Source of the DNA: a virus | Taxonomy: Duplodnaviria; Heunggongvirae; Uroviricota; Caudoviricetes | Length of the DNA stretch: 64,000 nt | Virus record (IMG/VR): IMGVR_UViG_3300048588_000114 | Location: 15,309 to 79,308 of that record | Reading direction: 5' to 3' (one strand) | Shown here: positions 9 to 63,289 of the stretch, in pieces | How positions within the stretch are numbered: the stretch's first letter is position 1 | Layout of the letters: every line of letters begins with the position of its first letter | Notes under the pieces: model-generated | The model's database searches: none | What the model was told of the DNA's origin: nothing | What the model saw: the letters and a program-made list of their open reading frames with translations, nothing else | Translations under genes and position numbers: made by a program

Positions 9-1520
9 ATGTTTACACACTCGAAGTATCAATTAGGTTTATTCAATGAGATTGAAGAAGGCACTGGCAATATATTAGTAAAGGCAGTAGCTGGAAGCTC
101 TAAGACCTATTCAATAGTAGAGTCTCTCAATCATATATCTCCGATGAAGTCAATTGCTTTCTTTGCCTTTAACACACATATCGTGGAGGAGCTAAAGACT
201 AAGACACCATCCTACGTTGATATAACTACTTTACATAGCTTCGGTTGGAGGCATATGCAAGTTTACTACCGGGGCGTCAAGCTAAATCCTAATAAGGTCT
301 ATCAATACTGCGAGAAGCTATTGAAATTCAAAATCAAGGCAGAAGATCGTGGGTGGTATTTCATGACAATCGTGAGATTGATAGAGTTAATCAAATTTAA
401 TATCACTTTAAGCAAGAATAAGCTATTGGAGATGGCTTCTTTACATAATATGGACTATATCACTGAGGAAATACTAAAGGATGCTATAAACGTCTTTCAC
501 GTGACCTTAGAAGACAAAAGGCAATTTGACTTTACTGATATGATTTATGTCCCAGCTATACTGGATGACATAAGAATAAAGCAATATGATATAGTATTTG
601 TAGATGAGTGTCAAGATTTAAGCATTGCTCAGCAGCAACTACTCTACAGAGCAGTGAAGAGAAAAGGTGGTAGACTAATAGCAGTAGGCGATCCAAGACA
701 GGCAATATATGGCTTTGCTGGCTCTGATGCGATGAGCTTCAAGAGATTAGAGGAAAGACCGAATACAACTATTCTTCCACTTAGTGTTTGCTATCGTTGC
801 GCTAAAGAGATTGTTTATAAAGCCCAAGAGATAGTTGATGAGATAGAGCCATATGAAGAAAGTCCTGAGGGTGTCTATCGGACAGATGGTAAGATACATG
901 AGATGCGTAGGGGGGATTGGGTATTGTGTCGTAATGTTAAGCCATTAATCATTCTCTATATAGACCTCATCACCAAAGGGAAGTCTGCACACATTAAAGG
1001 TGAAGACATCGGTAGGTCTATAATAGCCCTATTAAAACAGACAAAGCAGAAGAGCATGGACGGCATAATCAGTAAACTGATTGATAAATACAAGCAGGTA
1101 CGTGCCGACCTCGCTAAGAAAGGGCATAAGAACCTTGAGAAACATCCTAAATTAGGACAACTTCAAGAGCATATATCAATCATAATGTTTCTCTCAGAGA
1201 AGTTCAATACAGTAGCCGAGGTAGAGAAAGCCATTGGTAGAATGTTTAAAGACAAGGGTGACGGCATACTTCTTAGTACAATCCATAAAGCGAAAGGATT
1301 AGAGAATGATAGGGTGTTTCTGATATGCCTTGACTTAATCCCCAGCAAATACGCCATTAAGCCGTGGCAGATTGAGCAGGAGGAGAATCTACTGTATGTT
1401 GCTTATACAAGGGCTAAGAAGGAACTTATAGTGGTGGATGACTTCAGAGATAGCGTTGAGGACTTTCTCAGCAAGGCAAGAGCAAACAAAAAACAGTTAA
1501 ATACAGAGTTACTAAGGTAA
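9..1520 (+). CDS. UvrD/PcrA/Rep-like superfamily-1 DNA helicase
   Basis: 503 aa. Walker A-like AVAGSSKTYS and Walker B VFVDECQDLS. SF1 motifs VGDPRQAIYGFAGSD, STIHKAKGLENDRVF and LYVAYTRAKKEL are present. Confidence 0.85.
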   Translation: MFTHSKYQLGLFNEIEEGTGNILVKAVAGSSKTYSIVESLNHISPMKSIAFFAFNTHIVEELKTKTPSYVDITTLHSFGWRHMQVYYRGVKLNPNKVYQYCEKLLKFKIKAEDRGWYFMTIVRLIELIKFNITLSKNKLLEMASLHNMDYITEEILKDAINVFHVTLEDKRQFDFTDMIYVPAILDDIRIKQYDIVFVDECQDLSIAQQQLLYRAVKRKGGRLIAVGDPRQAIYGFAGSDAMSFKRLEERPNTTILPLSVCYRCAKEIVYKAQEIVDEIEPYEESPEGVYRTDGKIHEMRRGDWVLCRNVKPLIILYIDLITKGKSAHIKGEDIGRSIIALLKQTKQKSMDGIISKLIDKYKQVRADLAKKGHKNLEKHPKLGQLQEHISIIMFLSEKFNTVAEVEKAIGRMFKDKGDGILLSTIHKAKGLENDRVFLICLDLIPSKYAIKPWQIEQEENLLYVAYTRAKKELIVVDDFRDSVEDFLSKARANKKQLNTELLR

Positions 1521-9121: not shown

Positions 9122-9182
9122 AAATTAATTGCCCTAATAATCAGATAGTTATGAATTGAGGCCAAAAATAGTTTGAAATATA

Positions 9183-9214: not shown

Positions 9215-9247
9215 TACTCACAAAACAACCTCAAAAACAAAGAAATC

Positions 9248-10324: not shown

Positions 10325-10353
10325 TAAGAGGTTGTTTTGAGGAGCCAAATCGA

Positions 10354-10386
10354 AGCCCCGCCCTAATCCGGCGGGGTTTTCTTTTG
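10354..10386 (+). terminator. rho-independent terminator
   Basis: CCCCGCC-CTAATCC-GGCGGGG hairpin followed by TTTTCTTTTG. Confidence 0.65.
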
Positions 10387-10765
10387 CCCTTAATCGTTCC
10401 CCCGGAGGGAAAGAGACCCGGTTGAGGCAAATCTAAATACAACCCCGATAAACACTCAAATAAGCCCTATAAGCAACGTTCAACCCTCAGCCCAATACAA
10501 AGTCCATCCGTTCACCCGCCAACCTAAAAATCACCTTAAAACAAAGATTTAGTGTTGGGAACATCAAACATATGAATCAATCTAACTTAAAACTGTCCAA
10601 GCCCACCGAAGAGCCGAAGAACTCAACCTCAAGAATACGACCCAGACCCCGGAGATAAGGGAAGGTAAGACCACTAACACCCCTGAGCAGTTATAGGCTA
10701 CTAAGAGACACCCTTGAGTGAACAATGTTATATAAGGTGTTTATGTACTCTAATGAATCAAACAT

Positions 10766-12106
10766 ATGAAGAAAGAGAACCTCGATAAGATAAGGGCTGC
10801 ACAACGGAAGGCCGCTGAACAAAATGCCAAAAAGAGGCTGGGCGATGATGATGCGTTCGATGAAATTCCCGCCGGGTCTAAGGTGAAGCTGCAAGATATG
10901 TCCAGAAGAAAGGGCATCGGGTCTGAGGACTTAGACGCTGAGATGGTTGGCGTGAAAGACAAGGAAGCATATCAGAAGTGGCGCCGGATGAAGAACCTAC
11001 CAATACTAAATGAAGGGATGATCATTCCGACCTCTGACGGTGGATCAGCGAATATGGGCTGGCTTCCTCACTACTTTGAGAAGCGTACACTCCACTTACC
11101 CCAGGCTGAACAGGATGCGCTGAATGTAAAGAGAGAAATATACAACAAAATACACCTTCAGGCGGTGTTCTTGAAGCATAAGGCTTATGGGACTAATCCG
11201 GTGAAGAAAGCGCAGGAGCGGGCTTCCGGGAGGGCTAAGGAGTTGGGGTTCTTAAAGGCAAAGAAGGCACAACTGATTGAGTTATTCGGCAAAATGTTCT
11301 CCGTGGATGAGATTCACAAGATAATCGTGGAGGAGTGGAACTTCCCAATAGCCAAGGCAGACATTATAGACTTCAAGATGAACAACTTGTCTGTTATCTC
11401 AGAGAAACAAGAGATACACAAGCGTGAGCACTCTGACCTTAGGCTAGTTCATAAGCGTTCACGGTTGGAAGAACTAACGTATCTATATAACCGCTTGAAT
11501 GATAAGATTAAAGTCACTACTAACCGGGAAGATATACGGGTGATGACCTCTATACTGGTCGAGATACGTAGAGAGATAGAGGGTGAGAAGGTAACTATTA
11601 ATGGTAAGCTGGACGTGAACATAGAAGCCGACATCAATACCCACCTTCAGAAAGAAGTGTTCAAGGAGTTCAGCTTAGTACAGATCATTATGGGGCGTGT
11701 TGCTTCACGGATGAGAACCCCGGTGTATAGGATTATACAAGGATTACAGAACTCATATTATGCCCGGTACAACCGTTTCTTAGGTAATGAGCCGGAAGAC
11801 GTTGATTGGGAAGAGATAGAACACCCATCCCAGATGGGGTTTGACTTCGAGAAGATCGCTGCTCAGTACCGGGAGAAAGAGGTGCGCTACGCAAATGAAT
11901 TAACTGCCCATAAGGCAAAAGAGGCCGAAATCCAGACCAGAGTGGCCTCAAGCGGTATAAAGGAAATGTTGATGGCCCGGATTGCTGAAAAGACTGGCGA
12001 TGTTAAGGCTCAAAAGTTACAAGTAAATGTGTTGGAGTTAGAGAAGAAGAAGGCAGAGGCATCTGATAAGTCCGGGCTAAGGACTAAGCGACCTGATCAA
12101 GGTTAG
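10766..12106 (+). CDS. hypothetical charged, coiled-coil-rich protein
   Basis: 446 aa ORF after a 440 bp non-coding region. Confidence 0.55.
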   Translation: MKKENLDKIRAAQRKAAEQNAKKRLGDDDAFDEIPAGSKVKLQDMSRRKGIGSEDLDAEMVGVKDKEAYQKWRRMKNLPILNEGMIIPTSDGGSANMGWLPHYFEKRTLHLPQAEQDALNVKREIYNKIHLQAVFLKHKAYGTNPVKKAQERASGRAKELGFLKAKKAQLIELFGKMFSVDEIHKIIVEEWNFPIAKADIIDFKMNNLSVISEKQEIHKREHSDLRLVHKRSRLEELTYLYNRLNDKIKVTTNREDIRVMTSILVEIRREIEGEKVTINGKLDVNIEADINTHLQKEVFKEFSLVQIIMGRVASRMRTPVYRIIQGLQNSYYARYNRFLGNEPEDVDWEEIEHPSQMGFDFEKIAAQYREKEVRYANELTAHKAKEAEIQTRVASSGIKEMLMARIAEKTGDVKAQKLQVNVLELEKKKAEASDKSGLRTKRPDQG

Positions 12107-12113
12107 TAATACT

Positions 12114-12380
12114 ATGGCCAAAATAAAAATTAATAATGAAGACAAATATGTCTTTAGGCGCTATCTAAGTGAAAATCCACATCATTATGAAGATATTGAG
12201 ATGGATGGTAGAACAGTTGCCGCTCTTGCTCAATCCTATCTTTCAGTGAAGAATAAAGATACCAAGTATGTGAAGTTCACCGATGGTGCTGTAATATCTA
12301 ATGATTTATTTGATCAGAAGATATTAGGCCGTCCAGAGCTAATCAAATCAACAGAAGAAATCCCATTAGGTCACGCCTAG
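12114..12380 (+). CDS. hypothetical protein
   Basis: 88 aa ORF. Confidence 0.45.
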   Translation: MAKIKINNEDKYVFRRYLSENPHHYEDIEMDGRTVAALAQSYLSVKNKDTKYVKFTDGAVISNDLFDQKILGRPELIKSTEEIPLGHA

Positions 12381-12395
12381 ACTAATAATACTATA

Positions 12396-12815
12396 ATGGT
12401 AAACTATCTAATCAACGTAACAGTAGAGGGAGACAGTGATACTTGGTCAAAGGAACGGTATAGCCGTGATCAATCCAAGGGCACCTCTAAGATGAATGTC
12501 GCCTATCTAAAGAAAGTAGTGTTTGCGATAGAGGACGCATTAGCTCAAGCTAAATCAGATCTAAGTGGGGCAATACATATCAGTGGGGATATCAAGAATA
12601 TGAACCGCCGGGAGTTTAATCACTATAAATCAGTATGGATTGAGGCTAACAAAGACCTAATCAAGAGCATTGTTGATAATGATTATGGACGCACCGACCC
12701 TAAGGGAAAGGAGCTAATCACTAAGGCTCGAAAGGAATTAGGCTACTGTGATGGATATGTTGATCAAGACCTCTTCCGCTCATTAGTTAATACCTATAAA
12801 AGACACCATCCATAG
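12396..12815 (+). CDS. hypothetical protein
   Basis: 139 aa ORF. Confidence 0.5.
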   Translation: MVNYLINVTVEGDSDTWSKERYSRDQSKGTSKMNVAYLKKVVFAIEDALAQAKSDLSGAIHISGDIKNMNRREFNHYKSVWIEANKDLIKSIVDNDYGRTDPKGKELITKARKELGYCDGYVDQDLFRSLVNTYKRHHP

Positions 12816-12897
12816 TCATGAGACACCTACCGGCACGCCATTGGGCGCTAATCATATTAATCGTCATCGCTTTAATTATAGTCTTAACCTAACAGTC

Positions 12898-13254
12898 ATG
12901 GACTTCCACTCAGAGAGAAGAATGGCTGAGGAGATAGGCCGACTAATCAAGTTCACCTCTACGCCTGACTTCCAATACTTTGCCCAGCGTTTACCTAAGC
13001 TAACACTAAGAACTGATATGAATGATATAGAAGACAAAGTCTACGCCCTAATGCAGCAATTCATCAAGCCATCAGTGTTGGTGATTTCTAATGATCTACT
13101 CAGTAAGATACTGGATAGAATGCACATCCCGCCACATATAGCCGTTGAATCTAAAGAAGGCTGGGACACTCTCAATGTTGGTGGTCATAAGCTAGAGATA
13201 GTCAGGACATACAGAAGTAATGTCTGTGAAGTCTACGGTAAAGATCGCTTGTAA
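12898..13254 (+). CDS. hypothetical protein
   Basis: ORF 12841-13254; ATG at 12898 (MDFHSERR) is the likely start. Confidence 0.45.
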   Translation: MDFHSERRMAEEIGRLIKFTSTPDFQYFAQRLPKLTLRTDMNDIEDKVYALMQQFIKPSVLVISNDLLSKILDRMHIPPHIAVESKEGWDTLNVGGHKLEIVRTYRSNVCEVYGKDRL

Positions 13255-13469
13255 TGTTTAGCCGCTTTGTATATTGGCTCCTCTCTATCACGAGAGAAAA
13301 GACACCTGCTGGATATTCAGAAGAATCCACCTCAATGATTACCCATCCTAATGATCGATGCTTTAACTGTGGCCGTGAAGGCAAGCAGACTAGCCTAATC
13401 AATGGCCGCTCCTACTGCTGTCGTAGATGTAACGTTTGGTGGATCAATCCGGCTCCAAGTCAGAGTTAG
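13254..13469 (+). CDS. small C4 zinc-ribbon protein
   Basis: CFNCG ... CCRRCN cysteine pairs in 71 aa. Confidence 0.4.
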   Translation: MFSRFVYWLLSITREKTPAGYSEESTSMITHPNDRCFNCGREGKQTSLINGRSYCCRRCNVWWINPAPSQS

Positions 13470-13491
13470 TAAAAGCCTAATATTAAATCAA

Positions 13492-14337
13492 ATGGAAGAA
13501 AACAGATTAATCGGGAACAAGGCCGTAGTGATGGACTTGACTACACTGGAGACACCGGATGAAAGTTTCTGTATGGTGTTATTCAAGCTATTAATGCCTG
13601 TGCCTAATGAGGCAGAGCTAAGAGAGTTCTATATGGGCACGACACGTAGAATATCTAAGCATATGGGAAGGATTGATGAGTTCCGGGTCTTCACTTCAGA
13701 GGAGATGACTAAGCAAAAGCAACGTGAGATAGAGCATGGGGTGGAATGGCTTAACCGCAAACTAAACAAGGCTCTAAAGGAAGGCATAGCTGATCATAAC
13801 AAGCCGGAAGAAAAATGGGCTGATTTGATTATCCCATTAGATAAGGAACGCTACTCAGAGATTAAAGTGGTTGAGTGGAACACTGAAGATACCAGCTATG
13901 TTACTAAGGCCAAGGAAGTGTATCAAGATCGTACAGAAGCTCAGCAAGCCATATTGGATATTGAGAACAGCAGAGCTATGAAGATGATTCAGAATGAGCG
14001 TAGAGAGCAAGTGATGAAACATGGGTTCACCATTGAGAAGGACAGGGAACTCTATAAGAACGGTGAGTTGGTGATGGTGGCTAACGCCTTGATCAATAAG
14101 GACATCACCAGCTGGCCTAAGGGAGCGATGGAGATGAGGTGGTGGTGGAAGTTCATGGAGAAGTCCCGGATAGATCAATACAAGATCGCAGGGGCATTGT
14201 TGATGGCTGAGGAAGAGAGATTAGTGGCGTTCAACAAATATGAGCGGGACATCGAGGCAGTGGCTAAGGCGATGGAGAGCCTAATCAGGGATACACCTAA
14301 GCCTAATGAAGAAGCAGGGCAGTCCGGTCACGCTTAA
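13492..14337 (+). CDS. hypothetical charged protein
   Basis: ORF 13402-14337; ATG at 13492 (MEENRLIG) is the likely start after the zinc-ribbon gene. Confidence 0.55.
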   Translation: MEENRLIGNKAVVMDLTTLETPDESFCMVLFKLLMPVPNEAELREFYMGTTRRISKHMGRIDEFRVFTSEEMTKQKQREIEHGVEWLNRKLNKALKEGIADHNKPEEKWADLIIPLDKERYSEIKVVEWNTEDTSYVTKAKEVYQDRTEAQQAILDIENSRAMKMIQNERREQVMKHGFTIEKDRELYKNGELVMVANALINKDITSWPKGAMEMRWWWKFMEKSRIDQYKIAGALLMAEEERLVAFNKYERDIEAVAKAMESLIRDTPKPNEEAGQSGHA

Positions 14338-14363
14338 TAACTATTAAATCTAAAACATATATC

Positions 14364-14726
14364 ATGAAAACAAATGTAACAGCAACGGCCATGAACTTTG
14401 GCCAAGCGTTAGAGACGCTAAACTTAGGAGGCTTAGTAGCCCGTGAAGGTTGGAACGGTAAAGGGATGTGGTTGAAGAAAATCAACAACTACGAGGTCAA
14501 CGAAGACTTAGGCCCAGTATGGGGTGAGAAGAAAGATGGGGACAATGTTGTAAACAATGGAGAAAACCCGCTCCTACCGTGGATAGGAATGAAGACAGCA
14601 GACAACAAGTTTGTACCGTGGTTAGCCTCTCAAACAGACATACTGGCTAATGATTGGTGTCAGGTGGAACTCGTGAAGCCAATGGGAGACAAGGTTCCCG
14701 ATGATCACAAGACAAACAAAGACTAA
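14364..14726 (+). CDS. DUF2829-domain protein (Tad2-like candidate anti-Thoeris signal sponge)
   Basis: N-terminus MNFGQALETLNLGGLVAREGWNGKGMWL matches the DUF2829 hallmark (FGEALEALKxGKKVxRxGWNGKGM). 120 aa, typical size. Confidence 0.6.
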   Translation: MKTNVTATAMNFGQALETLNLGGLVAREGWNGKGMWLKKINNYEVNEDLGPVWGEKKDGDNVVNNGENPLLPWIGMKTADNKFVPWLASQTDILANDWCQVELVKPMGDKVPDDHKTNKD

Positions 14727-14733
14727 TTAGCCA

Positions 14734-15099
14734 ATGATGAAGCAAAAGAATAACATCCGTATGAGAGTACAGGGAGCAGAGGAGCCAGCCGCTGACTTCG
14801 CCAAGAGATTAGAGAAGGATTGTGATGCGTTGGCTAAGGAACTCAATGCCGTCACCCCGCCTATCTGTGTAATGACTGCTTCTTCGTCCGGTAGGATGAC
14901 AGCAACCATTCAGATCATCACTAACGTGGATGACGATAGAGAAGAGGCTGTTTTCAATGGCTTTGAGCTTCAGATGGCCTACGAACTATACAAAGACCAG
15001 CCTGACTATAATCCAGCAGCACCCTTGGATGGCTATAATGACTGGCTTATCAGGCTCAAAAGAAAAGATTTGAACCCGGAGAAGTCAGGTAAAGACTAA
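14734..15099 (+). CDS. hypothetical protein
   Basis: 121 aa ORF followed by two tandem terminator hairpins. Confidence 0.5.
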   Translation: MMKQKNNIRMRVQGAEEPAADFAKRLEKDCDALAKELNAVTPPICVMTASSSGRMTATIQIITNVDDDREEAVFNGFELQMAYELYKDQPDYNPAAPLDGYNDWLIRLKRKDLNPEKSGKD

Positions 15100-15136
15100 A
15101 CGATACTGCGATGAGCTGAGTAGCAGCAGTTGAGAA

Positions 15137-15175
15137 AACCCCCGGTGACCGCAACGAACCGGGGTTTTTCTTTTA
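15137..15175 (+). terminator. rho-independent terminator
   Basis: AAAACCCCCGGT-loop-ACCGGGGTTTTT. Confidence 0.65.
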
Positions 15176-15198
15176 ACAGCGTTTATGAGAGTTCTAAG

Positions 15199-15266
15199 AG
15201 GGGCGGTGTTTTGGGTAGCCGCTCCCCCTAACCAGCCCCCGTTTTGACCAGCGGGGGTTTCTTTTT
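15199..15266 (+). terminator. second tandem terminator hairpin(s)
   Basis: GGGGCGG...CCGCTCCCC and CCCCCG...CGGGGG hairpins followed by TTTCTTTTT. Confidence 0.5.
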
Positions 15267-15288
15267 AGCTAAAACAGCGTTAATTTAG
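15258..15288 (+). promoter_or_regulatory. putative promoter (-7 TAATTTAG) with paired TTAGCTAA palindromes
   Basis: TTTTTAGCTAAAACAGCGTTAATTTAGCTAAAC lies 15 nt before ATG 15303. Confidence 0.35.
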
Positions 15289-15302
15289 CTAAACAATAAA
15301 TC

Positions 15303-15536
15303 ATGGCGAAGTCAAATCTAATTATCAAGGAAATCAAATCATCCACTGGAACTGACGAATCTTCTACATTGAAGCTAATTGCCGATACCCAGAGTGGTAA
15401 GACTTTCATAGAGGTCACTAAGACAATTAGAGAATGTTACCCATTGACTGAGTATGACAAAGCTGATCAACTCTATGAAGACCTCAACCGGGGTGGAGGC
15501 AGGAAGGTAGTAAAACTAAAGGATTTAACCAAATAA
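15303..15536 (+). CDS. hypothetical protein
   Basis: 77 aa ORF. Confidence 0.45.
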   Translation: MAKSNLIIKEIKSSTGTDESSTLKLIADTQSGKTFIEVTKTIRECYPLTEYDKADQLYEDLNRGGGRKVVKLKDLTK

Positions 15537-15548
15537 TCAACAATAACA

Positions 15549-16079
15549 ATGGAGACAAAAGAAAACAAGCCTAAGATAGGCAAATTTACGTGTTTCGTTG
15601 ATGTCGATACCGATGTCAGCCCAGAGGCACTAAAGAGAGCAACACCACACATCCACAGAGGTGTTCAATTCAAAGAAGAAGACCGGGATGCTATTCAGCG
15701 GCTCTTTAGTCACTGTCCTATCCCGACAGACTTTGAAGAGAACGGAGACTGGCTGTTTGAAACAATGACTGATGGTAAGTATCACTACGTCATAGTGTCC
15801 GACAAGGATGTAAAGGAGAAGTACAAGGGTTTCGATGCGTCCGGTGTACTTGGCTGTGGGCCAGGCAGTGAGAGGTTTGCCGTACCTACCAAAGATCAGG
15901 TAATGGAGTGTATGAAGGGCAGTAAATCAGAAGCAGAATGGAATGAGAACTGCGATAAGGTGAAGAAAGCCCACGGTGGCCAATACCCTGACTATTGGTA
16001 TGAGACTTTCATCCAGTCAGGCCTAATCAATGAGATACTTGGCCCCGGCTCTGACGAAATTAAAATCAAGAAAGGGTAG
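15549..16079 (+). CDS. hypothetical protein
   Basis: 176 aa ORF. Confidence 0.55.
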   Translation: METKENKPKIGKFTCFVDVDTDVSPEALKRATPHIHRGVQFKEEDRDAIQRLFSHCPIPTDFEENGDWLFETMTDGKYHYVIVSDKDVKEKYKGFDASGVLGCGPGSERFAVPTKDQVMECMKGSKSEAEWNENCDKVKKAHGGQYPDYWYETFIQSGLINEILGPGSDEIKIKKG

Positions 16080-16084
16080 GAATC

Positions 16085-16867
16085 ATGGATATAGGACATC
16101 TCGATAAAGCAGAGGTATTAGCTGCCCTCTATAATGCGGCAAAGATTCAAGGCGGTGGAGCCTTTCACGCTAAAGGTGATCTAATGCCAGTTGATCAGGC
16201 CCAACGAATACTGGATGAGAGCAAAGACAAGTATTTTGACTATCTGTTCGGACGGGTGATGAAAGTGGACTTATCTCAGGACAAAGTAGACCCGTGGCTG
16301 TATAACAGGGACAACGGGGAACACGCCTTTGAGAAAGCTATCCAGCACCTAATGCCTAAGACAGCTGGTAAGACCGGGTTAGCGATGATTCTATTGCTGA
16401 TTAGTTTGATATTCTCAAGTTGCTCTGAGAACTACTCTAACGGCAACCGGGTAGGAACAATCACCCGGTTCTCCAAGCAAGGTCATATGTGTAAGAGTTG
16501 GGAAGGCCACTTAAACGTCACCCAGACTGGAATGAACAGCGGTGGGCAGTTTGAGTTCTCTATCGACAACGACAATGAAGATGAGGGTGTTATTGCTTCG
16601 TTAGATAGCGCCCTACAAAAGGGTTGGATTGTTGACGTTACATATCACGAGGTAGCCGGGCTCAATTGGTTAAACAACCGGGGGGAAACTGATTATTTCG
16701 TAACGGGCGTCAAGGTCTTGGAGCGAGACCCTACTGGATTACATCAGCGTCAGCAGTCAACCGTATCAGCGCCCAATGAATTAGATAATAAGGACTATTA
16801 TACACTGCCCATATTAGACGGTGTATACGTGGATAGTATAATTGTTGTGTATCGTAAAAGACGTTAG
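16085..16867 (+). CDS. hypothetical protein containing an internal, in-frame lipoprotein-type signal (possible nested lipoprotein from ATG ~16385)
   Basis: 260 aa ORF. Residues 101-117 MILLLISLIFSSCSEN look like a signal peptide plus lipobox; the N-terminal 100 aa are hydrophilic. Confidence 0.55.
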   Translation: MDIGHLDKAEVLAALYNAAKIQGGGAFHAKGDLMPVDQAQRILDESKDKYFDYLFGRVMKVDLSQDKVDPWLYNRDNGEHAFEKAIQHLMPKTAGKTGLAMILLLISLIFSSCSENYSNGNRVGTITRFSKQGHMCKSWEGHLNVTQTGMNSGGQFEFSIDNDNEDEGVIASLDSALQKGWIVDVTYHEVAGLNWLNNRGETDYFVTGVKVLERDPTGLHQRQQSTVSAPNELDNKDYYTLPILDGVYVDSIIVVYRKRR

Positions 16868-16887
16868 CTAATTCAGAGTTTATTACC
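16864..16887 (+). repeat. 15-mer motif TTAGCTAATTCAGAG(TTTAT), copy 1
   Basis: Overlaps stop codon of the 16085 gene; repeated at 17004 and 28365. Confidence 0.5.
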
Positions 16888-16952
16888 ACATAAGGACAAC
16901 GCCTACTGCCCGCACCTGACGAGGTCAGCCTAAGCAGAGGGAATCCACTCAA

Positions 16953-17003
16953 AAGCCGCCGCCCGAAATACAAAAGGGAATTAATGGGCGGCTTTTTTTT
17001 TAT
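16953..17003 (+). terminator. rho-independent terminator
   Basis: GCCGCC ... GGCGGC stem followed by TTTTTTTTT. Confidence 0.6.
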
Positions 17004-17028
17004 TTAGCTAAATCAGAGTTTATCTTAG
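17004..17028 (+). promoter_or_regulatory. 15-mer motif copy 2 plus -7 box TATCTTAG
   Basis: TTAGCTAAATCAGAGTTTATCTTAG lies 30 nt upstream of ATG 17059. Confidence 0.45.
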
Positions 17029-17058
17029 CTAAAAGACACCATTAAAACCAAAATCATT

Positions 17059-17301
17059 ATGAAAAAAATGTTAATTATCTTCGGTTGTTTAGTAGTATTA
17101 CTATCTATCACCGTATTTGGAATGATCAAGATATTCAGTGACGAACAGGCTAAAGCTAAGGAAAAGATAGGCCATCGCTACGTATTAGGCAAAGACACTA
17201 TTTTGGTGATTGACTTCTCAACCATCAAGGACACCTACACAATCTACGGGGGACAAGAGGTGGCGCCTGAATTACTAAGTACATTAGTGGAGGTAAAGTA
17301 A
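17059..17301 (+). CDS. small secreted/membrane-anchored protein
   Basis: N-terminal hydrophobic MKKMLIIFGCLVVLLSITVFGMI. Confidence 0.45.
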   Translation: MKKMLIIFGCLVVLLSITVFGMIKIFSDEQAKAKEKIGHRYVLGKDTILVIDFSTIKDTYTIYGGQEVAPELLSTLVEVK

Positions 17302-17592
17302 ATGAAGAAGATATTCCAACCAACGGTAGTGGACTTCAATGAGCACCCACATAAAGCTAAGATATTGGCTTTGATTGGTAAGGAAGTCACTATTGAACCT
17401 AATCATGATCGTTCAAAGATTAAATATGGTAGGTATAAGGGCCAATACAGGTGGCAGATACTTGAAGTCCATAGGGACTACTATTGGTTCCCGTGTGAGG
17501 ACTTCAAAGATGTGTTAGTATTAACGGCTGAGGAAGAGAATAAAATGAACGTGATAATCAAGGAATCATTAGAATTACCAGTTGAAATCTAA
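17302..17592 (+). CDS. hypothetical protein
   Basis: 96 aa; start overlaps previous stop (TAAATG). Confidence 0.45.
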   Translation: MKKIFQPTVVDFNEHPHKAKILALIGKEVTIEPNHDRSKIKYGRYKGQYRWQILEVHRDYYWFPCEDFKDVLVLTAEEENKMNVIIKESLELPVEI

Positions 17593-17595
17593 ATT

Positions 17596-17820
17596 ATGGC
17601 TAAGAAACCATCACCACCAGAACGCTCCCAAGAGGAGAAGAACTACGGCTCAGTAGTTGTAGCCATGATGTCATTGAGTCAAATCAAATTAGATGGATTT
17701 ATTCACCCAGTAGAACTGGCTGATATGAAAACTAATTTAGCACATTGGGAGGCTAAGCTAAGGAAACACCTAAATGAGCAAGGAATCAAAACACCAAATA
17801 TAGAAAGACTATTGAAATGA
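17596..17820 (+). CDS. hypothetical protein
   Basis: 74 aa ORF. Confidence 0.4.
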   Translation: MAKKPSPPERSQEEKNYGSVVVAMMSLSQIKLDGFIHPVELADMKTNLAHWEAKLRKHLNEQGIKTPNIERLLK

Positions 17821-18032
17821 GGCAACGAATAAAAGCATTCTGGTTGAGATTCTGGCACTGTCTAATAATGACTGCCAGACAGCCCGGCGTTGACCACCGG
17901 ATGGAGACTAACGCCACCTACCGTGGCCCAATTAGGATTAAGACACATTATATTGGGTGCGCCTGTGGCAAGGTTTATTATGGTAGGAGAACGTGGGAGT
18001 TCTTTGATAAACACGATAAAAGCAGGAAATAA
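17817..18032 (+). CDS. hypothetical small protein
   Basis: 71 aa, ATGA overlap with upstream gene. Confidence 0.4.
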   Translation: MRQRIKAFWLRFWHCLIMTARQPGVDHRMETNATYRGPIRIKTHYIGCACGKVYYGRRTWEFFDKHDKSRK

Positions 18033-18235
18033 TGATCATTTGCGGTATAGATATAGCCAAGACCGATGCAGAGCAATGTGCTTTTGTAATAGCGAGAATC
18101 AAGGATGGAGTGATGGAGATAATAGATACCGATAGCTTTCCAGCCCCTAATACACCTGAAAGACGTGAGGCATATGAAGCAATGGTGGATAAGATCGTAC
18201 AGAGATTCCCTAATATCACTAAATTATATACATAA
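18032..18235 (+). CDS. hypothetical small protein
   Basis: 67 aa, ATGA overlap. Confidence 0.4.
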   Translation: MIICGIDIAKTDAEQCAFVIARIKDGVMEIIDTDSFPAPNTPERREAYEAMVDKIVQRFPNITKLYT

Positions 18236-18236
18236 C

Positions 18237-18770
18237 ATGGAAAATAAAACAGAAATAGTAAGTCTCTTCGCAACTGGCCTATTAGGCTTCACGATAGACT
18301 ATAAGACAGAGAAAGGCCACCCCGCTAAGGGAACAGTGGTAGACAAATACCGGGGCAGCACGGTAGGGGAATATGCTGTTGATTATTATTTAGTTGTAGA
18401 TAAAGATGGGATGGCTGATTGTATCCGACCATTTCAAGTTACTAAAGTCTACACTCAACCAATATTTATCAACAGCAAGCCAGAGCCTAAAGTAGTGAGT
18501 GATTGGTTGGACAGCAATACACCTGATAATCAAGATTGCTTTATATTAGAGATTGAGCATGGTGAGGATACATATGTATTAGAGATTGGCTGTAAGGCTG
18601 GATATTATTATGCAAAATTAAATAAATTCTTAGATAAAGCAGACAAGAGAAAGCAAGAAGAAAACATTCTCATACATGCTGATAGTGATCATCCAGATTG
18701 CACCATATCAAGCATAGAGGTATTGAAGAAACAAGCAACCTGGAAAGCTCTACAATTTCTAAAGAAATAG
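18237..18770 (+). CDS. hypothetical protein
   Basis: ORF 18165-18770; ATG 18237 (MENKTEIV) follows upstream stop. Confidence 0.55.
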   Translation: MENKTEIVSLFATGLLGFTIDYKTEKGHPAKGTVVDKYRGSTVGEYAVDYYLVVDKDGMADCIRPFQVTKVYTQPIFINSKPEPKVVSDWLDSNTPDNQDCFILEIEHGEDTYVLEIGCKAGYYYAKLNKFLDKADKRKQEENILIHADSDHPDCTISSIEVLKKQATWKALQFLKK

Positions 18771-18772
18771 TC

Positions 18773-19803: not shown

Positions 19804-19805
19804 GC

Positions 19806-38016: not shown

Positions 38017-38057
38017 ACAATAATTCAGCTATAATCCTGATAAGGTTAAGTAATGCT

Positions 38058-38090
38058 AAAAGGGTGGGGCTTAGGCTTCACCCTTTTTGT
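38058..38090 (+). terminator. rho-independent terminator
   Basis: GGGTG-GGGCTTAGGCTT-CACCC followed by TTTTTG. Confidence 0.55.
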
Positions 38091-38118
38091 TCATTGTTAT
38101 TTATCAAAAGTACTAATT

Positions 38119-39855
38119 ATGCTAAAGAGTAGCATTGACCTAAGTGTGCCTAAATTGATCTTACCTAACACAGCAAATGCTTCGTATGGTAGGAACGATG
38201 TGGTAACACTAGACCAAGCACGTGAAGTTTACCGGGTTGTAGATGACCTCATTGATGGACTGGATGATGTGTCCCTTGATTTGCTATTTAGTGCCTCAGA
38301 GCATGATGTAGACAGGGTTTTATCCACTTTCTTTGAAGAATCATATGCTGTAATGTATGGCGGTGAGACACGTATCAAGGAAACATCTGTCAATTATCTG
38401 GAGAGATTATCTGAGAATATAGAAGAAGTATTGAGGGTTGAGAATTTCAACTATTTCCTAACCAATGTTCTCACTAATTTTGATATAAATTGGCACCACT
38501 TAGAGTGGGGGAGTTTAGCTCAGAATAATCGCTTCACTAATTTTATTGCTCCACGTGACCACGGAAAGACCTATTTTTTCTCTAATGCAATGACTTGTTG
38601 GCGTCTTTATCGCTATAAAGACCCGGATAGTGTAGCTAGACATCTAAGAAAAAGAAATGAACTTAATCGAAAAGGCTTCATTATCACTAATGAGATGGAG
38701 TTGGCCGAAGAAATCTTAGAGACTGTAAAGAATACCATAGAGGAACATGATATTTTACATGAAAGGCTCTATCCTAATACAAAAGACAACTGGTCAAAGC
38801 GTAGTATTAAGTGTAAAAACGGAGCAAGAGTAGGTTTAAAATCCTACGGTGGTAGCTTCCGGGGGCGCCACCCCGGTTGGATTACAGTGGATGACTTCTT
38901 AAAAGACAATGTGCTCTATTCTGAGGTTCAAAGAAAGAAAGCAATCGACTACTTTCACTCAGTAATTATGAATGCTATTTCTCCGGGTGGTAGCGTTACT
39001 GTAGTTGGAACACCATTCCATCAAAATGACCTCTACGGAGACCTAAAGACCAAGAAAACTTGGAAATGCTTTGAATATCCTGCTATTACTCCGCATGGAG
39101 ATGTATTATGGAGAACCCGTTATTCCTATAAAGACCTTATTGAGAAGCGTGAGGCGCAAGGAAATATCATTTTCTCTCGTGAAATCTTAGTTGTACCCAT
39201 ATCAAGCAACTCTACTTTATTCCCTTGGAATGTATTGAAGCGTTGTTTCATAGGTATGCAAGACTACACATTAGTGAAAAATAGAGATTCATTCCCTAAG
39301 AAATTCACAAAAGTAGTAACTGCTTGTGATTTCGCAAGAAGCGCCAATGTAGGTGCTGATTATTCAGCATTTACAACTTGGGGGATAGACGAGAATGAGG
39401 ATATGTGGCTATTGCATATCTGGAGGGCTAAAGGTCGGTCATTCCGTGATCAAATCAATGCCGTTAAGTCAATAAACGCTAACTTCAGGCCAGATGTAAT
39501 TGTGATGGAGGTCAACCAATTCCAGCAGATTATGGCTGATATTGCTGAAGAAGAAGGATTAACCAATGTTGTTCCACATACTACTACTGGTAAGAATAAG
39601 CATGACTTTATCATCGGTGTTCCGGGCTTAGCTATCCTATTTGAGAAAGGAAAAATACACATACCACGTGGAGATCAGTACAGCCGGGATGCCTCTGATG
39701 TTCTCATGTCTGAATTAAGTGCGATAGCATGGACAGATGAGGGAATACAGGGTGTTGGAGAGCATGATGATATGGCTATATCTACTTGGTTGGGAACAAT
39801 TGGAGCAAGAAAAATAGGTGTTGGCTTTGGACTTAGCTTCTTAGCGGCAGCATAA
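38119..39855 (+). CDS. terL: terminase large subunit (TerL)
   Basis: ATPase Walker A FIAPRDHGKTYFFS and Walker B ITVDDF. C-terminal RNase-H-like nuclease acidic motifs VVTACDFARS...DYSAFTTWG, DVIVMEVNQFQ and GEHDDMAIS. Confidence 0.85.
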   Translation: MLKSSIDLSVPKLILPNTANASYGRNDVVTLDQAREVYRVVDDLIDGLDDVSLDLLFSASEHDVDRVLSTFFEESYAVMYGGETRIKETSVNYLERLSENIEEVLRVENFNYFLTNVLTNFDINWHHLEWGSLAQNNRFTNFIAPRDHGKTYFFSNAMTCWRLYRYKDPDSVARHLRKRNELNRKGFIITNEMELAEEILETVKNTIEEHDILHERLYPNTKDNWSKRSIKCKNGARVGLKSYGGSFRGRHPGWITVDDFLKDNVLYSEVQRKKAIDYFHSVIMNAISPGGSVTVVGTPFHQNDLYGDLKTKKTWKCFEYPAITPHGDVLWRTRYSYKDLIEKREAQGNIIFSREILVVPISSNSTLFPWNVLKRCFIGMQDYTLVKNRDSFPKKFTKVVTACDFARSANVGADYSAFTTWGIDENEDMWLLHIWRAKGRSFRDQINAVKSINANFRPDVIVMEVNQFQQIMADIAEEEGLTNVVPHTTTGKNKHDFIIGVPGLAILFEKGKIHIPRGDQYSRDASDVLMSELSAIAWTDEGIQGVGEHDDMAISTWLGTIGARKIGVGFGLSFLAAA

Positions 39856-53496: not shown

Positions 53497-55149
53497 ATGG
53501 CTGGAAATAAGTTAGAGAAACTAATTCAATTAGAGCAAAAAGTAGGTAAACTAAAGGACAGGGAGATTGAAAAAGCCCTTTCCTCTAGCGACCCTAATGA
53601 GCTCATAAAAGCCCACTTAGCTTTCCAGAAGCAAGTAGAGGCACGTCAAGATCACGGCCACAAAGCATATCTGGTTGACCCTAATGAGTTCCAAAGTTCT
53701 TTTGGCTACAAAGATCGACCAGTCAATTTGTCCTATAATATGCTGAAGGGAATGGCGAGAGTGCCTGTAATTAATGCGGTCATAAAGACCCGTATCAATC
53801 AGGTTGCTGCTTTCTGTGAGCCTCAGAAGAATGAATATAGTGTTGGCTATGTTATTCGAAAACGTAAACTACCCGGTGAGAACTCTCCTACTAAAATGAC
53901 TAAGGATGAGAGACAGGAAATTTATGATCTTCAGGATTTCATGGAGAATTGTGGGGAAACAAATGTCTGGGGTGCTGATGATTTTGATGCTTTCTGTAGA
54001 AAGATAATCAGAGATAGTCTTGTATTTGATCAAATGACCTTTGAAGTAGAGAGGGACAGAAGAGGAAAGCCAGTGGCTTTTTATGCTGTAGATGCTTCTA
54101 CAATGAGACTATCTGAAAGTTTCGATGATCAGAACTATGAGCAGTATAAGAACACAATCAATGTAGGTACGAAGATAGCTAAGGTTCAAAATTACTATCC
54201 TTCCTATGCTCAGATATTGGATGGTAGTGTACATGAGCTATTTTATCCATGGGAAATGTGCTTTGGTATTCGGAATCCCACTACTGATGTTACAATGTCA
54301 GGATATGGAGTTTCTGAGTTAGAAGAATTAGTGTCTGTGGTTACATCTCTTGTCTGGGGAGAAGAATATAACAGACGTTTCTTCAAGCAAGGTTCTGCGC
54401 CTAAGGGTATTCTTAGGATTTCAGGCTCAATGCCTGATCATAAATTGAATGAGTTTAGGCAGAATTGGAACTCCACTATGCGTGGTGTCCAAAACGCCCA
54501 CCGAACTCCGGTTCTCGAAGCAGAGAAAGCTGATTGGATTGATCTTCAGCGCAATAATCGGGACATGGAGTTCACTCAATGGATGGAGTTCCTAATTAAG
54601 GTAGCTTGCGCCATTTATACCATAGACCCTTCTGAGATTAACTTCCCTATGAGTGGCTCAGCTGGCTCTTCTCCTATGTTTGGAGAAAACAAAGAGTCAA
54701 CATTGAAGTTTTCTCAAATGAAAGGTCTTTATCCCATCCTAAAGTTCCTACAAAAACGCATCAATAAGTATCTTATTCAGCCACGCAATCCTAAGTATGA
54801 GTTTGCTTTTGTTGGTTTAGATGCGATGACACCTAAGGAACAAGCCGAACTGGATGAGAAGTCAGTTAAAACCTACAAGACGGTGAATGAGTTGAGGAAA
54901 GAAAAGAACCTCAAGCCATTGCCGGGCGGGGATATATTGCTTGATTCTACTTTCGCTAGGGCTGTAAATGCAGAGAAACAGAGACAAATGATGGATGATA
55001 GCCAAGGATATGAGGACGGCGGTGCCGGGGCAGAAGAAGCCATTATTTCAGGTAAATATCCCGGCGGTGAGGCTGAGGAAGAACTGGATAAAAATAATCC
55101 AATTATCAAATCCTTAGAGGAGTTCTTGATTGGCATCAATACGAAATAA
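53497..55149 (+). CDS. candidate portal protein
   Basis: 550 aa at the head of the capsid-morphogenesis block; size and position are typical. No decisive motif. Confidence 0.45.
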   Translation: MAGNKLEKLIQLEQKVGKLKDREIEKALSSSDPNELIKAHLAFQKQVEARQDHGHKAYLVDPNEFQSSFGYKDRPVNLSYNMLKGMARVPVINAVIKTRINQVAAFCEPQKNEYSVGYVIRKRKLPGENSPTKMTKDERQEIYDLQDFMENCGETNVWGADDFDAFCRKIIRDSLVFDQMTFEVERDRRGKPVAFYAVDASTMRLSESFDDQNYEQYKNTINVGTKIAKVQNYYPSYAQILDGSVHELFYPWEMCFGIRNPTTDVTMSGYGVSELEELVSVVTSLVWGEEYNRRFFKQGSAPKGILRISGSMPDHKLNEFRQNWNSTMRGVQNAHRTPVLEAEKADWIDLQRNNRDMEFTQWMEFLIKVACAIYTIDPSEINFPMSGSAGSSPMFGENKESTLKFSQMKGLYPILKFLQKRINKYLIQPRNPKYEFAFVGLDAMTPKEQAELDEKSVKTYKTVNELRKEKNLKPLPGGDILLDSTFARAVNAEKQRQMMDDSQGYEDGGAGAEEAIISGKYPGGEAEEELDKNNPIIKSLEEFLIGINTK

Positions 55150-59969: not shown

Positions 59970-61703
59970 ATGAAGAAGAATAATAATTTCAAATTCTGGG
60001 TTCCCTTAGAATTTTCCAAGGCTAAGAATGAAACCACCGGAGAAGTTGAGATGAAAATAGGCGGGATTGCCTCTACATCAGCGAAAGACAGCGATGATGA
60101 GGAATTAGACCCGGCAGGTTTTGATCTCAGTGTCCTAAAATCCCATGGTGTCATCAATTGGCACCACATGCAAAAGACCAATCCAGATGCGATTATTGGC
60201 GAACCCACTAAGGCAGAACTAACTCCAAAAGGGTTGTATTTAGAGGCAAAGCTCTATCCAGATAGTGAATTAGCTAAAAAAGTTTACAAATTAGCTGAAG
60301 TTTTAGCTAAAAATTCTAAAACCCGTAGACTTGGATTTTCCATCGAAGGCAAGAAGACAGAAGTTGACCCTAATGATGAAACAAAAATCCTGAAGGCAAA
60401 GATCACCGGGTGCGCCATCACCTATCTTCCAAAGAATCCTACCACATTTGCTGATATCATCAAAGGTCATGAGGTTGAGGAACCTATCTATGAATTTGAT
60501 GAGGAGATAGAAAAAAGTGACCTTTCAATCAAGGCATTGAATAACGCCGCTAATGGCGGTGCAGTTAAATTCTTAGTAAATCTAACGACCAAGGACGGAA
60601 AGACCGTGAAGGTCACTGAAGATGGTGAAATAACAGTTGATATGTCTAAATCATTAACAACAGAAGCCGGGAGCGGGGGTGCTCTCAAGAAAGAGCATGT
60701 AGATTCAGGGCTCAAGGAAACAATCAAAACAAGTGATAAACCTAAGGAATTAACAAAAGCCGAAGCCTTTGATAAAATATTTTCTGATTTCCCAGATATA
60801 GACATTCAAAAGGCTAAGCAAATTTTCAATACAACAACTAAAATTACTGCCATGAGCAAAGAAAAAACCAAACCTACAAAGGATGAAATCGAGAAGGCCT
60901 ACGCTGTTTTAGGTCTCAACAATGAATCAGAAGATGATAACATTGAAAAAGGCGAAAACACTACCGAATCAGAAGATGAGGTAAAACCGCCAGCAAAGAA
61001 ACCAGCAGCACCAGCTAAAACAGCTACTGTTGAAAAAGGTGGAGGCGACAAAGGCCCAGATGAAGAAGAGGAGGAAGAGGAAGAAGAGGACGAAGAACCA
61101 GCGAAACCAGCAAAAAAAGATATGAATAAAGCACAATCCAGCGACCTGATGTATTTCCAGAAGGGCGACAATTACGTAGCCATGGTAAACAAAGGCGGCG
61201 AACTTCAGGAAGTCCCTGATAAATTATTCCAAAAGACCGCAAGCGGCTACCAGGAAATCATCAAAACCCCTATCGAGAAATCAATTGAAGAAAACATTGG
61301 AAAACTGCTCAATGGCCAGTCAGACCTTCAAAAAGCTATCGGTGTAGTGGTTGGTGACCTGAAAGCTCAGGTAAGTGGTCTGCAAAAACAGGTGGAAGAA
61401 ATGAGTGGACAGCCCACAGGCCGTAAATCGGCTACAAACGCCACAGTGAAAGAAAAGAAATTTGCTGGTGCAAATGATGACCTTACCAAAGGCCGTACCG
61501 ATGGCAAGACCCTCTCTATCAAGAATCGTAACGCAGTATTGTCAGTGCTTGAGAAAGCAATGTACTTGCCGCTTGAGAAAGGCCAAGGTGGTCTCGATGC
61601 TGGTTTTGAGAAAGCAATGACCACTTTTGAAGCCAGCGGGCAGATTTCTGCACAAAACGTAGGCCGTCTTGAGCGTGAATTCGGAATATTCCTCGTGGAC
61701 TAA
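59970..61703 (+). CDS. prohead protease (HK97 gp4-like) fused to scaffold-like C-terminal region
   Basis: N-terminal KIGGIASTS...DPAGFDL...INWHH...LGFSIEGK resembles the HK97-family prohead protease core. C-terminal half is coiled-coil with poly-Glu tract EEEEEEEEDEE. Confidence 0.6.
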   Translation: MKKNNNFKFWVPLEFSKAKNETTGEVEMKIGGIASTSAKDSDDEELDPAGFDLSVLKSHGVINWHHMQKTNPDAIIGEPTKAELTPKGLYLEAKLYPDSELAKKVYKLAEVLAKNSKTRRLGFSIEGKKTEVDPNDETKILKAKITGCAITYLPKNPTTFADIIKGHEVEEPIYEFDEEIEKSDLSIKALNNAANGGAVKFLVNLTTKDGKTVKVTEDGEITVDMSKSLTTEAGSGGALKKEHVDSGLKETIKTSDKPKELTKAEAFDKIFSDFPDIDIQKAKQIFNTTTKITAMSKEKTKPTKDEIEKAYAVLGLNNESEDDNIEKGENTTESEDEVKPPAKKPAAPAKTATVEKGGGDKGPDEEEEEEEEEDEEPAKPAKKDMNKAQSSDLMYFQKGDNYVAMVNKGGELQEVPDKLFQKTASGYQEIIKTPIEKSIEENIGKLLNGQSDLQKAIGVVVGDLKAQVSGLQKQVEEMSGQPTGRKSATNATVKEKKFAGANDDLTKGRTDGKTLSIKNRNAVLSVLEKAMYLPLEKGQGGLDAGFEKAMTTFEASGQISAQNVGRLEREFGIFLVD

Positions 61704-61768: not shown

Positions 61769-63289
61769 ATGAACGGCTTAGGAAATTTAGGCATCAACCT
61801 GTCGGCTTACAACAATGTTGTGAACGACAATCAGGTGTTGTTTGGCAATGCCAGCACATCGATGGAGCAACTCAATGATTTATCCAAAGCGTTAGAGGCT
61901 GGCGAGATCACAGGACGTGAGACCACCAACTCTACTACAGCTTCAGGCGCAGGTCTGAAAATGGAAAGTTTGGATAAAACACTGAAATTGCTGACCTACC
62001 GTGAAAGTGAGATCGTGCTGTGGAAGAAAATTCCTAAGCTAGCGGCTTACAACACTGTAGAGGAGTACAATCAATTAGCGTCATACGGTCAAGACCGTGG
62101 AGGCTTCATGCAAGAAGGTGGTTTACCACTGGAAGAAGACAGCACTTACATCCGTAGGGCGCAGTTAGTGAAGTTCCTTGGTGTGACCAAATCAGTGACT
62201 CACCCAATGACCTTAGTGCAAACTATGATCGGGGATGTTATTGCCCGTGAAGCTAAGAACGGTTCACTGTGGATTCTCCGCAAGCTGGATAAAGCCCTAA
62301 CTAAGGCTAATTCACGCCTCGTGGCTGAAGAGTTCAATGGACTTTACGCTCAGCACGAAGAAAACGATGCTTATTCAAGCAAAAACGCCTACTACAACGG
62401 AAACGAAGTGGTTGTTGACTTGCGTGGGGACTACCTGCAAGAGAAATACATTGAGCGTGGCGCTGAAGGAATCATTGAAAACTTCGGTTTGGCTAACGAA
62501 TTGTTTGCTCCACCTAAAGTACTGAGTGACTTTGTTCAATCATTCTACGGAAATAAGTTCATCCAGCCTAATTCAGAAATGACTTCTGCTGGTGGAATGG
62601 GTCAAAAAGTTAACTACTTTGATTCGCAATTTGGCCGTATCAACCTGAACTGGGACATCTTCATGAATAAAGGTGCTAACAAAACCACTGCTACACCAGC
62701 TGAATCACCTAACGCTCCTGCGGTAATTGTGCCTGACGGTTCAACTCCTATCGCTGCCGTTGCTGCTACTGCTGCCAATACAATGTGGGCTTCTACAGAT
62801 GCTGGTGCGTACTTCTACGCAGTGAGTGCATTCAACATGTACGGTGAATCAGCATTGACTGCTTTATCTGCTTCAGCGACTACAATCGCAACAGGTGGTG
62901 CAGTTGACCTTAAATGGGCTGCTGGCGCTGGCGCTAATGCTGCAACTGGTTTCCGTGTGTATCGTTCACAAAAAGGTGCTGTTTCCGTAGCTACTTCAAC
63001 ATTCTATCCATTGTTCGACGTTACCCAGACTGAGATCACTGCTGGATATGATGGAGGTGCAGCCGGGTTGGTAAGGGACTTAAACCGTATTATGCCTAAC
63101 TGTAATCAGGCTTTCATGCTTCAAATGGACGAAGATGTACTGGCTTTCCGTCAGTTGGCTCCATTAATGAAAATGGATTTAGCGATGATCTCTACCGCTT
63201 ACCGTTTCATGATTCTCCTTTATGGAACTCCGCTGTTGTTCGCTCCTAAGAAAATGGTGCGTTACATCAACATCGGTTTGAAACCCTAA
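61769..63289 (+). CDS. major capsid protein candidate with Ig/Fn3-like insertion
   Basis: 506 aa directly downstream of protease-scaffold. Internal segment GGAVDLKWAAGAGANAATGFRVYRSQKG is Ig/Fn3-like. Terminator follows. Confidence 0.6.
   Translation: MNGLGNLGINLSAYNNVVNDNQVLFGNASTSMEQLNDLSKALEAGEITGRETTNSTTASGAGLKMESLDKTLKLLTYRESEIVLWKKIPKLAAYNTVEEYNQLASYGQDRGGFMQEGGLPLEEDSTYIRRAQLVKFLGVTKSVTHPMTLVQTMIGDVIAREAKNGSLWILRKLDKALTKANSRLVAEEFNGLYAQHEENDAYSSKNAYYNGNEVVVDLRGDYLQEKYIERGAEGIIENFGLANELFAPPKVLSDFVQSFYGNKFIQPNSEMTSAGGMGQKVNYFDSQFGRINLNWDIFMNKGANKTTATPAESPNAPAVIVPDGSTPIAAVAATAANTMWASTDAGAYFYAVSAFNMYGESALTALSASATTIATGGAVDLKWAAGAGANAATGFRVYRSQKGAVSVATSTFYPLFDVTQTEITAGYDGGAAGLVRDLNRIMPNCNQAFMLQMDEDVLAFRQLAPLMKMDLAMISTAYRFMILLYGTPLLFAPKKMVRYINIGLKP

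Follow-up and report, generated by a model that had tools for sequence, protein, structure and literature searches.

The question raised by this locus is whether a small open reading frame (ORF) in a tailed-phage genome encodes a sponge for the signalling molecule of Thoeris immunity, and which signal it would bind. Tad2 of phage SPO1 is a homotetramer with two inter-protomer pockets, which sequester 1''-3' gcADPR and block type I Thoeris; of five diverse Tad2 homologs, four inhibit type I Thoeris and one does not (10.1101/2023.05.01.538930). In IMG/VR, 2,783 non-redundant Tad2 homologs are found (PMC12393519). The window (the whole stretch of 64,000 nucleotides analysed here) is a tailed-phage genome with all genes on the + strand. 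A first-pass annotation of its sequence named the ORF a DUF2829/Tad2-like candidate anti-Thoeris sponge, a reading that holds on the Pfam domain, the matches to solved structures, the fold, and the conservation of the gcADPR pocket. The ORF and its parts are as follows.

14364..14726, + strand: Tad2-like (DUF2829) ORF, ATG to TAA, 120 aa plus stop, 13.4 kDa, pI 4.95
14391..14393, + strand: alternative start codon M10, where the conserved domain begins; the product would be 111 aa
14391..14660, + strand: PF11195 Tad2-like domain, residues 10-99 (Pfam match, AlphaFold pLDDT, Foldseek)
14448..14465, + strand: GWNGKG loop, residues 29-34; its W30/N31/G32 make up the first half of the predicted gcADPR pocket
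14475..14579, + strand: variable acidic insertion, residues 38-72, 35 aa; equivalent of the beta2-beta5 insertion in HgmTad2, SptTad2, and ModTad2
14589..14639, + strand: MKTADNKFVPWLASQTD, residues 76-92; second half of the predicted pocket (M76, T78, D80, V84, W86, S89, T91, D92)
14661..14723, + strand: C-terminal tail, residues 100-120, QVELVKPMGDKVPDDHKTNKD; charged, no predicted secondary structure beyond residue 103

Family membership, fold, and start codon

The Pfam search that had been proposed finds DUF2829 (PF11195) with E = 9.5e-23 and 81 bits against a gathering cutoff of 25, and residues 10-99 cover profile positions 1-71 of 73. An identical 120-aa protein (P0001) from JGI metagenome sample 3300048834 carries the same domain as a precomputed annotation. 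The protein also matches PHROGs 1048 (1e-28) and 872 (1e-25), both of which are families of unknown function. Seven distinct PDB sequences are matched by phmmer with E-values from 1e-14 to 1e-11: HgmTad2/AcrIIA7 (8KBI and others; best match, 1.1e-14), pdAcrIIA7 (9KZR; second, 2.6e-14), SPO1 Tad2 (8SME, 8WJE), ModTad2 (8V3E, 9EIB), and SptTad2 (8WJD). The number of database proteins matched at E<=1e-3 is at least 7989, and PF11195 is carried by all 120 among the matches listed. A tblastn match is present in 246 GenBank phage records. Identity to every characterised Tad2 member is about equal (34-42%), and therefore similarity does not assign the protein to a subfamily. No model of the PADLOC and NCBIfam libraries matches it; these libraries do not cover Tad2, so this result is uninformative.

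An AlphaFold2 model of the single chain, built from a 93-sequence alignment, has a mean pLDDT of 80.6. Confidence is above 90 for core residues 11-30 and 71-100, 57-71 for residues about 41-70, and about 70-76 for the C-terminal tail. The model has helices at residues 12-20 and 90-94 and strands at residues 24-27, 36-40, 73-77, 83-85, and 98-103. When it is compared with the PDB by Foldseek, 24 matches are found at E<=1e-3, and all 24 are Tad2-family chains (probability 1.00, target-normalised TM 0.60-0.86). The next match has E = 1.9. The FGxALExL motif of helix alpha1, which is used for tetramerisation, is conserved. Within the limits of what sequence and predicted fold can show, the protein thus belongs to the Tad2/DUF2829 family. 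It adds a new, moderately divergent member to a family that is already known and much studied, and its novelty is low.

The N-terminus had been described as a close match to the conserved opening of DUF2829 proteins. The opening MNFGQALETLNLGGLVAREGWNGKGMWL is present, but it begins at residue 10 (ATG 14391) and not at the first codon: the ORF starts with MKTNVTATA, followed by MNFGQ... from M10. In the alignment of 93 close homologs, the equivalent of M10 is the exact start of 22, and the median extension before it is 5 residues. The JGI gene call starts at 14364. No Shine-Dalgarno signal was found upstream of either ATG (14364, 14391), and thus a ribosome-binding site does not choose between them; either could be the true start. 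Overlapping ORFs on the minus strand are treated as spurious because they are short and the genome's genes are all on the + strand. The Tad2-like gene is single-copy within the window, and its GC content is 0.457 against a window mean of 0.405.

The predicted pocket and its possible ligands

An alignment of the protein with the four characterised sequences that the HMMER output provided was used to compare 14 positions of the canonical pocket. At these positions the protein has W30, N31, G32, M76, T78, A79, D80, V84, W86, L87, S89, Q90, T91, and D92. HgmTad2 is identical at 13 of the 14 and SPO1 Tad2 at 11, and no position differs from both. W30/N31/G32 are equivalent to W25/N26 of SPO1 and W21/N22/G23 of HgmTad2. 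The ten gcADPR contacts of SPO1 Tad2 (W25/N26/I63/T65/D67/H71/W73/S76/T78/D79) correspond to W30/N31/M76/T78/D80/V84/W86/S89/T91/D92; eight of these match SPO1, while M76 and V84 are the residues of HgmTad2. Every residue hit in the HgmTad2 mutants without gcADPR binding (W21A/N22A and S90A/T92A/D93A) is conserved here. Across the 93 close homologs, the pocket residues are invariant or at least 90% conserved. It is reported that gcADPR binding is predicted to be absent in only about 1% of Tad2 proteins (PMC10680739).

These residues, together with analogy to the solved homologs, suggest that the protein is a 3'cADPR (1''-3' gcADPR) sponge blocking type I Thoeris, a reading to which we give a probability of about 0.7. 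As in the solved homologs, the small acidic protein would form a homotetramer of two V-shaped dimers, with two symmetric pockets at the interfaces of non-dimeric protomers. The GWNGKG loop (W30, N31, G32) of each protomer would line the pockets together with M76/T78/D80/V84/W86/S89/T91/D92. The pockets would sequester TIR-made 1''-3' gcADPR without degrading it. With the signal sequestered, the Thoeris effector ThsA would never be activated, and the phage would evade abortive infection by type I Thoeris. Since the Tad2 family is functionally plural, anti-Thoeris is the most likely activity and not a certain one.

This plurality is well documented. Between them, Tad2 homologs act against three types of Thoeris (I, II, and IV) as well as against CBASS and Pycsar; many inhibit more than one system, and a single homolog, Tad2_71, blocks all three of these Thoeris types (PMC12393519). 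ModTad2 binds the type II Thoeris signal, His-ADPR, but not that of type I (10.1101/2024.01.03.573942). The Pycsar signals cUMP and cCMP are bound by its second pocket. For HgmTad2, which is AcrIIA7 under another name and comes from Bacteroides phages, and for SptTad2, the ligands include cGG, cGAMP, and cUG, bound in a second pocket built by the long beta2-beta5 insertion; an insertion of 35-41 residues was associated with cyclic dinucleotide (CDN) binding by Li et al., and cGG-CBASS is documented in Bacteroidota (PMC10680739).

It is therefore possible, though we consider it unlikely, that the main or an additional signal of the present protein is a different one: His-ADPR (type II) or N7-cADPR (type IV Thoeris) in the canonical pocket, or, in a second pocket formed by the 35-aa insertion at the dimer interface, a CBASS or Pycsar signal (cyclic di- or mononucleotide). 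For the canonical pocket, the informative comparison is with ModTad2, which differs from the present protein at six of the 14 positions (M76L, A79V, V84A, L87T, Q90V, and T91S). At all six positions where ModTad2 departs from the gcADPR binders, the present protein agrees with the gcADPR binders. The pocket variants of the ModTad2 clade (KTVD...TWTPSVSD) are not seen; the sequence here is KTAD...PWLASQTD. This comparison is one of sequence differences alone, and the His-ADPR contact residues are not given in the ModTad2 preprint. Note that ModTad2 retains seven of the ten SPO1 contact residues and has a different specificity, so that pocket identity is suggestive but not decisive.

For the second pocket, the length of the insertion is in favour: its 35 aa (homolog median 32, n = 93) lie at the lower bound of the CDN-linked range. 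Conservation of its first part, NYEVNEDLGPVW, in the closest homologs suggests constraint, and the probable host phylum, Bacteroidota, is one with cGG-CBASS, the signal of which HgmTad2 and SptTad2 bind. The residues themselves argue against it. R31, S47, F70, and N85, the CDN residues of HgmTad2 that were validated by loss of cGG/cGAMP binding on mutation, correspond to I40, a gap, L70, and P85, that is, none of the four is identical, with the alignment uncertain within the insertion. The insertion sequence is unrelated to that of HgmTad2. No strands are predicted in residues 41-72 and the beta3-beta4 hairpin is absent from the model, which is a monomer with a pLDDT of only 57-71 in this part. 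A cGG pocket of the HgmTad2 type was rejected because R31/S47/F70/N85 are not conserved.

An improbable reading, but one that would make the protein a new subtype, is a dual-pocket sponge. It would combine the canonical 3'cADPR pocket with a second site from the divergent acidic insertion and its conserved NYEVNEDLGPVW motif, perhaps together with the C-terminal tail. This second site would bind a signal that has yet to be linked to Tad2 in phages of Bacteroidota, be it a novel nucleotide messenger or a partner protein. The tail is long for the family. After the conserved W98 there are 22 residues against a family median of 4, and only 6 of the 93 homologs have 15 or more. The end of the tail, VPDDHKTNKD, loosely resembles the tail of one homolog (P0006; IPDHRSQND). 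Only these two sequences carry it, and the likeness may be a short linear motif.

A decayed or repurposed DUF2829 protein without sponge activity, e.g., a structural remnant or one with a tail-linked role, is very improbable: the ORF is intact, the fold is confidently predicted, and all residues of pocket and core agree with the family at its invariant positions, a pattern that speaks for purifying selection on ligand binding. Such a relic would be consistent with the atypical 22-residue tail, with a neighbourhood that has no link to defence, and with the inactivity of some relatives, namely the one of five Tad2 homologs without anti-type I activity and the 19 of 84 tested sponge-family homologs that were inactive against all seven systems (PMC12393519).

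Scarcely credible is an anti-CRISPR role like that of AcrIIA7, in which the tetramer would bind tracrRNA in a basic groove and prevent assembly of the Cas9 RNP: the two best PDB matches are AcrIIA7 structures (8kbi and 9kzr), some GenBank phage homologs are annotated as 'anti-CRISPR protein', and AcrIIA7 without its head domain, which is also lacking here, binds tracrRNA via K58, K66, K71, K93, and R101 (PMC13133391), but these pdAcrIIA7 residues correspond to N20, E28, K33, a gap, and V52, with one of five kept (K71) and with the loss of K58 and K66, two of the three positions at which mutation had abolished RNA binding, the core has a net charge of -5.5 (pI 4.5) against about 0 in AcrIIA7 cores, which is unfavourable for RNA binding, and Cas9 inhibition by HgmTad2/AcrIIA7 was not reproduced by an independent group (Li et al., PMC10680739). 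An RNA-binding function of this kind was rejected on residue and charge grounds.

Neighbourhood and carrier phage

The first-pass annotation also saw the gene as part of a block of small early genes, as is typical of anti-defence islands. This finds no support. The neighbours range from 71 to 446 aa, they have no Pfam match, and the contexts of homologs are unrelated; early expression is itself presumed. An anti-defence island of small early genes is thus not supported, nor can it be refuted with present data. Landmarks of the window and of this neighbourhood are as follows.

9..1520, + strand: helicase
15234..15259, + strand: strong intrinsic-terminator-like hairpin, 10-bp stem and T-run, after gene 14734..15099
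38053..39855, + strand: large terminase subunit (TerL)
53497..55149, + strand: portal
59970..61703, + strand: prohead protease
61769..63289, + strand: major capsid protein (MCP)

The ORFs before the Tad2-like gene (120 aa) encode 446, 88, 139, 137, 71, and 311 aa, and those after it 121, 77, 176, 260, 80, and 96 aa. A Pfam search of these neighbours found no match, and PHROG matches were found only for the upstream 311-aa ORF. The NCBIfam search of the two nearest neighbours gave no match (PADLOC covered the Tad2-like protein alone), and no second known anti-defence gene was found among the neighbours. The 311-aa ORF (13402-14337, + strand) has a C-terminal domain (residues about 157-281) that also occurs in five PHROG families of unknown function (best E = 1.9e-8). 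The first 68 nt of this ORF lie within the 71-aa ORF at 13254-13469, so that the true start of the 311-aa ORF may be further downstream.

The Tad2-like gene is the penultimate gene in a co-directional run, followed by gene 14734..15099. The transcription unit of the Tad2-like gene probably ends at the hairpin at 15234..15259; other terminator-like candidates are found upstream of the gene, at 9088-9114 and 10360-10377.

The closest homologs, P0002 and P0003, are 68-70% identical to the present protein. Their genes lie beside genes for a ribonucleotide reductase large subunit and an HTH protein and share no neighbours with the gene studied here. In the contigs of the closest homologs (L002-L004), a conserved HTH_3 gene encoding 141-142 aa comes next after the Tad2-like gene. 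One of these contigs, L002, has the ribonucleotide reductase large subunit in front of a Tad2 with a 60-aa N-terminal extension. The downstream 121-aa gene was considered as the counterpart of this HTH gene and is unrelated to it (E = 1.8). An IMG/VR search for relatives of the lineage, with four flanking proteins as anchors, retrieved none. From its genomic context, including closest homologs without shared neighbours, the Tad2-like gene behaves as a mobile accessory gene.

The only result of the IMG/VR anchor search came from the 176-aa ORF (15549-16079, + strand). Its residues 115-175 are 48-54% identical to ORFs in four otherwise unrelated IMG/VR contigs (L005-L008), and this C-terminal part of about 60 aa is a small mobile domain. 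No Tad2 was found near the domain matches in these four contigs. The 2-kb blocks 10001-12000 and 14001-16000 have a GC content of about 0.46 against a window mean of about 0.40 and may be a mosaic of horizontally acquired segments.

The carrier is a novel, large, uncultured myovirus-like phage. Megablast of window positions 9000-21000 against GenBank phages (50,697 records) gave no match, implying a phage without a close sequenced relative, and a search of the window for tRNA genes found none. By protein, the closest cultured relatives are the 167-179 kb Bacteroides thetaiotaomicron phages DAC16/19/20/22/23 and SJC03 (MCP 46-47%, TerL 37%), and the next are a Chryseobacterium phage (39%) and then SPO1-like Bacillus phages (36-40%). 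Shine-Dalgarno-like 4-mers are found upstream of 11 of 82 genes, compared with 17% of random positions, and the leaders are A-rich. From these closest relatives and the lack of Shine-Dalgarno use, the host is probably a member of Bacteroidota. In the tblastn search of GenBank phages, the organism names listed go down to those with 4 records and do not include 'Bacteroides'; matching Bacteroides records therefore number 4 or fewer, and the six DAC and SJC phages cannot all carry a detectable homolog. The Bacteroidota promoter TTTG-N17-22-TAnnTTTG (-33/-7) is not enriched in the window (2 sites, 2.9 expected), and neither are sigma-70-like sites (16, 20.4 expected). The phage may use promoters of its own.

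Among the 34 ORFs scanned between 1.5 and 38 kb, 30 are without a Pfam match. In the dark region 1531-28943 (+ strand), none of the 27 other ORFs scanned has one, and the Tad2-like gene is the sole exception. Likewise, PF11195 alone appears in the precomputed JGI annotations for 28 genes. Beyond it, a patatin-like phospholipase is encoded at 29135-30028 (+ strand; PF01734, E = 3.4e-15). Patatin domains are better known as CBASS effectors (CapV); here the enzyme might serve in lysis, membrane remodelling, or superinfection exclusion. Two genes downstream is an SPFH/Band 7 protein of 510 aa (31248-32780, + strand; PF01145, E = 7.5e-16). Just upstream of TerL lie an RNase T/DEDD exonuclease (35097-35774, + strand; PF00929, E = 5e-19) and a MazG-like PRA-PH pyrophosphohydrolase (36543-37220, + strand; PF01503, E = 1.6e-8).

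Comparison with characterised Tad2 proteins

One further Tad2 member matters little alone, as the family is already characterised structurally and functionally and has thousands of members. The gene is among the very few interpretable ones in about 27 kb of unannotatable sequence, and it would imply TIR-based (Thoeris-type) signalling immunity in the host lineage. As a divergent Bacteroidota-phage variant with a canonical pocket, an insertion unlike that of HgmTad2, and a long tail, it is usable in panels for mapping sponge specificity. The question of ligand specificity is of interest for the Tad2 family and is not particular to this locus.

SPO1 Tad2 (gp34.65; 8SME/8SMF/8SMG/8WJE), the founding sponge against type I Thoeris, has the same Pfam domain and fold as the present protein (Foldseek E = 6.8e-8, target-normalised TM 0.76, about 40% identity). 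Both are small acidic phage proteins in which eight of ten gcADPR contacts are identical, and the MCP of the carrier phage is distantly related to those of SPO1-like phages (36-40% identity). The insertion, however, is 35 aa here and about 24-27 in SPO1 Tad2, and F44, which occludes the second pocket in SPO1, has no equivalent. M76 and V84 stand in place of I63 and H71. The present protein also has an extra 9-aa N-terminal extension and a C-terminal tail of about 20 aa, and the host phylum differs.

HgmTad2/AcrIIA7 (8KBI-8KBM, 8WJC) and pdAcrIIA7 (9KZR) come from Bacteroides and Phocaeicola phages, and the host phylum is probably shared. HgmTad2 is the best PDB sequence match (E = 1.1e-14) and shares 13 of 14 pocket positions, but only about 38% of residues are identical overall. 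The insertion has 9 residues fewer than in HgmTad2. In the RNA groove, N and E stand in place of lysines, the net charge is -5.5 (about 0 in AcrIIA7 cores), and the N-terminal head domain of pdAcrIIA7 is absent. HgmTad2-type genes are found in Phocaeicola phage PV4-TP1 (85%) and in a crAss-like phage (66%), implying that the present protein is a different subtype.

ModTad2 (8V3E, 9EIB), from a prophage of Myroides odoratus, likewise in Bacteroidota, is a sponge for His-ADPR (type II Thoeris) and for cUMP/cCMP (Pycsar). It shares with the present protein the fold (Foldseek E = 2.3e-7), the GWNGKG loop, and the conserved W86/S89/D92. The two proteins differ at 6 of 14 pocket positions, with KTAD...SQTD here and KTVD...SVSD in ModTad2, and their insertion sequences are unrelated.
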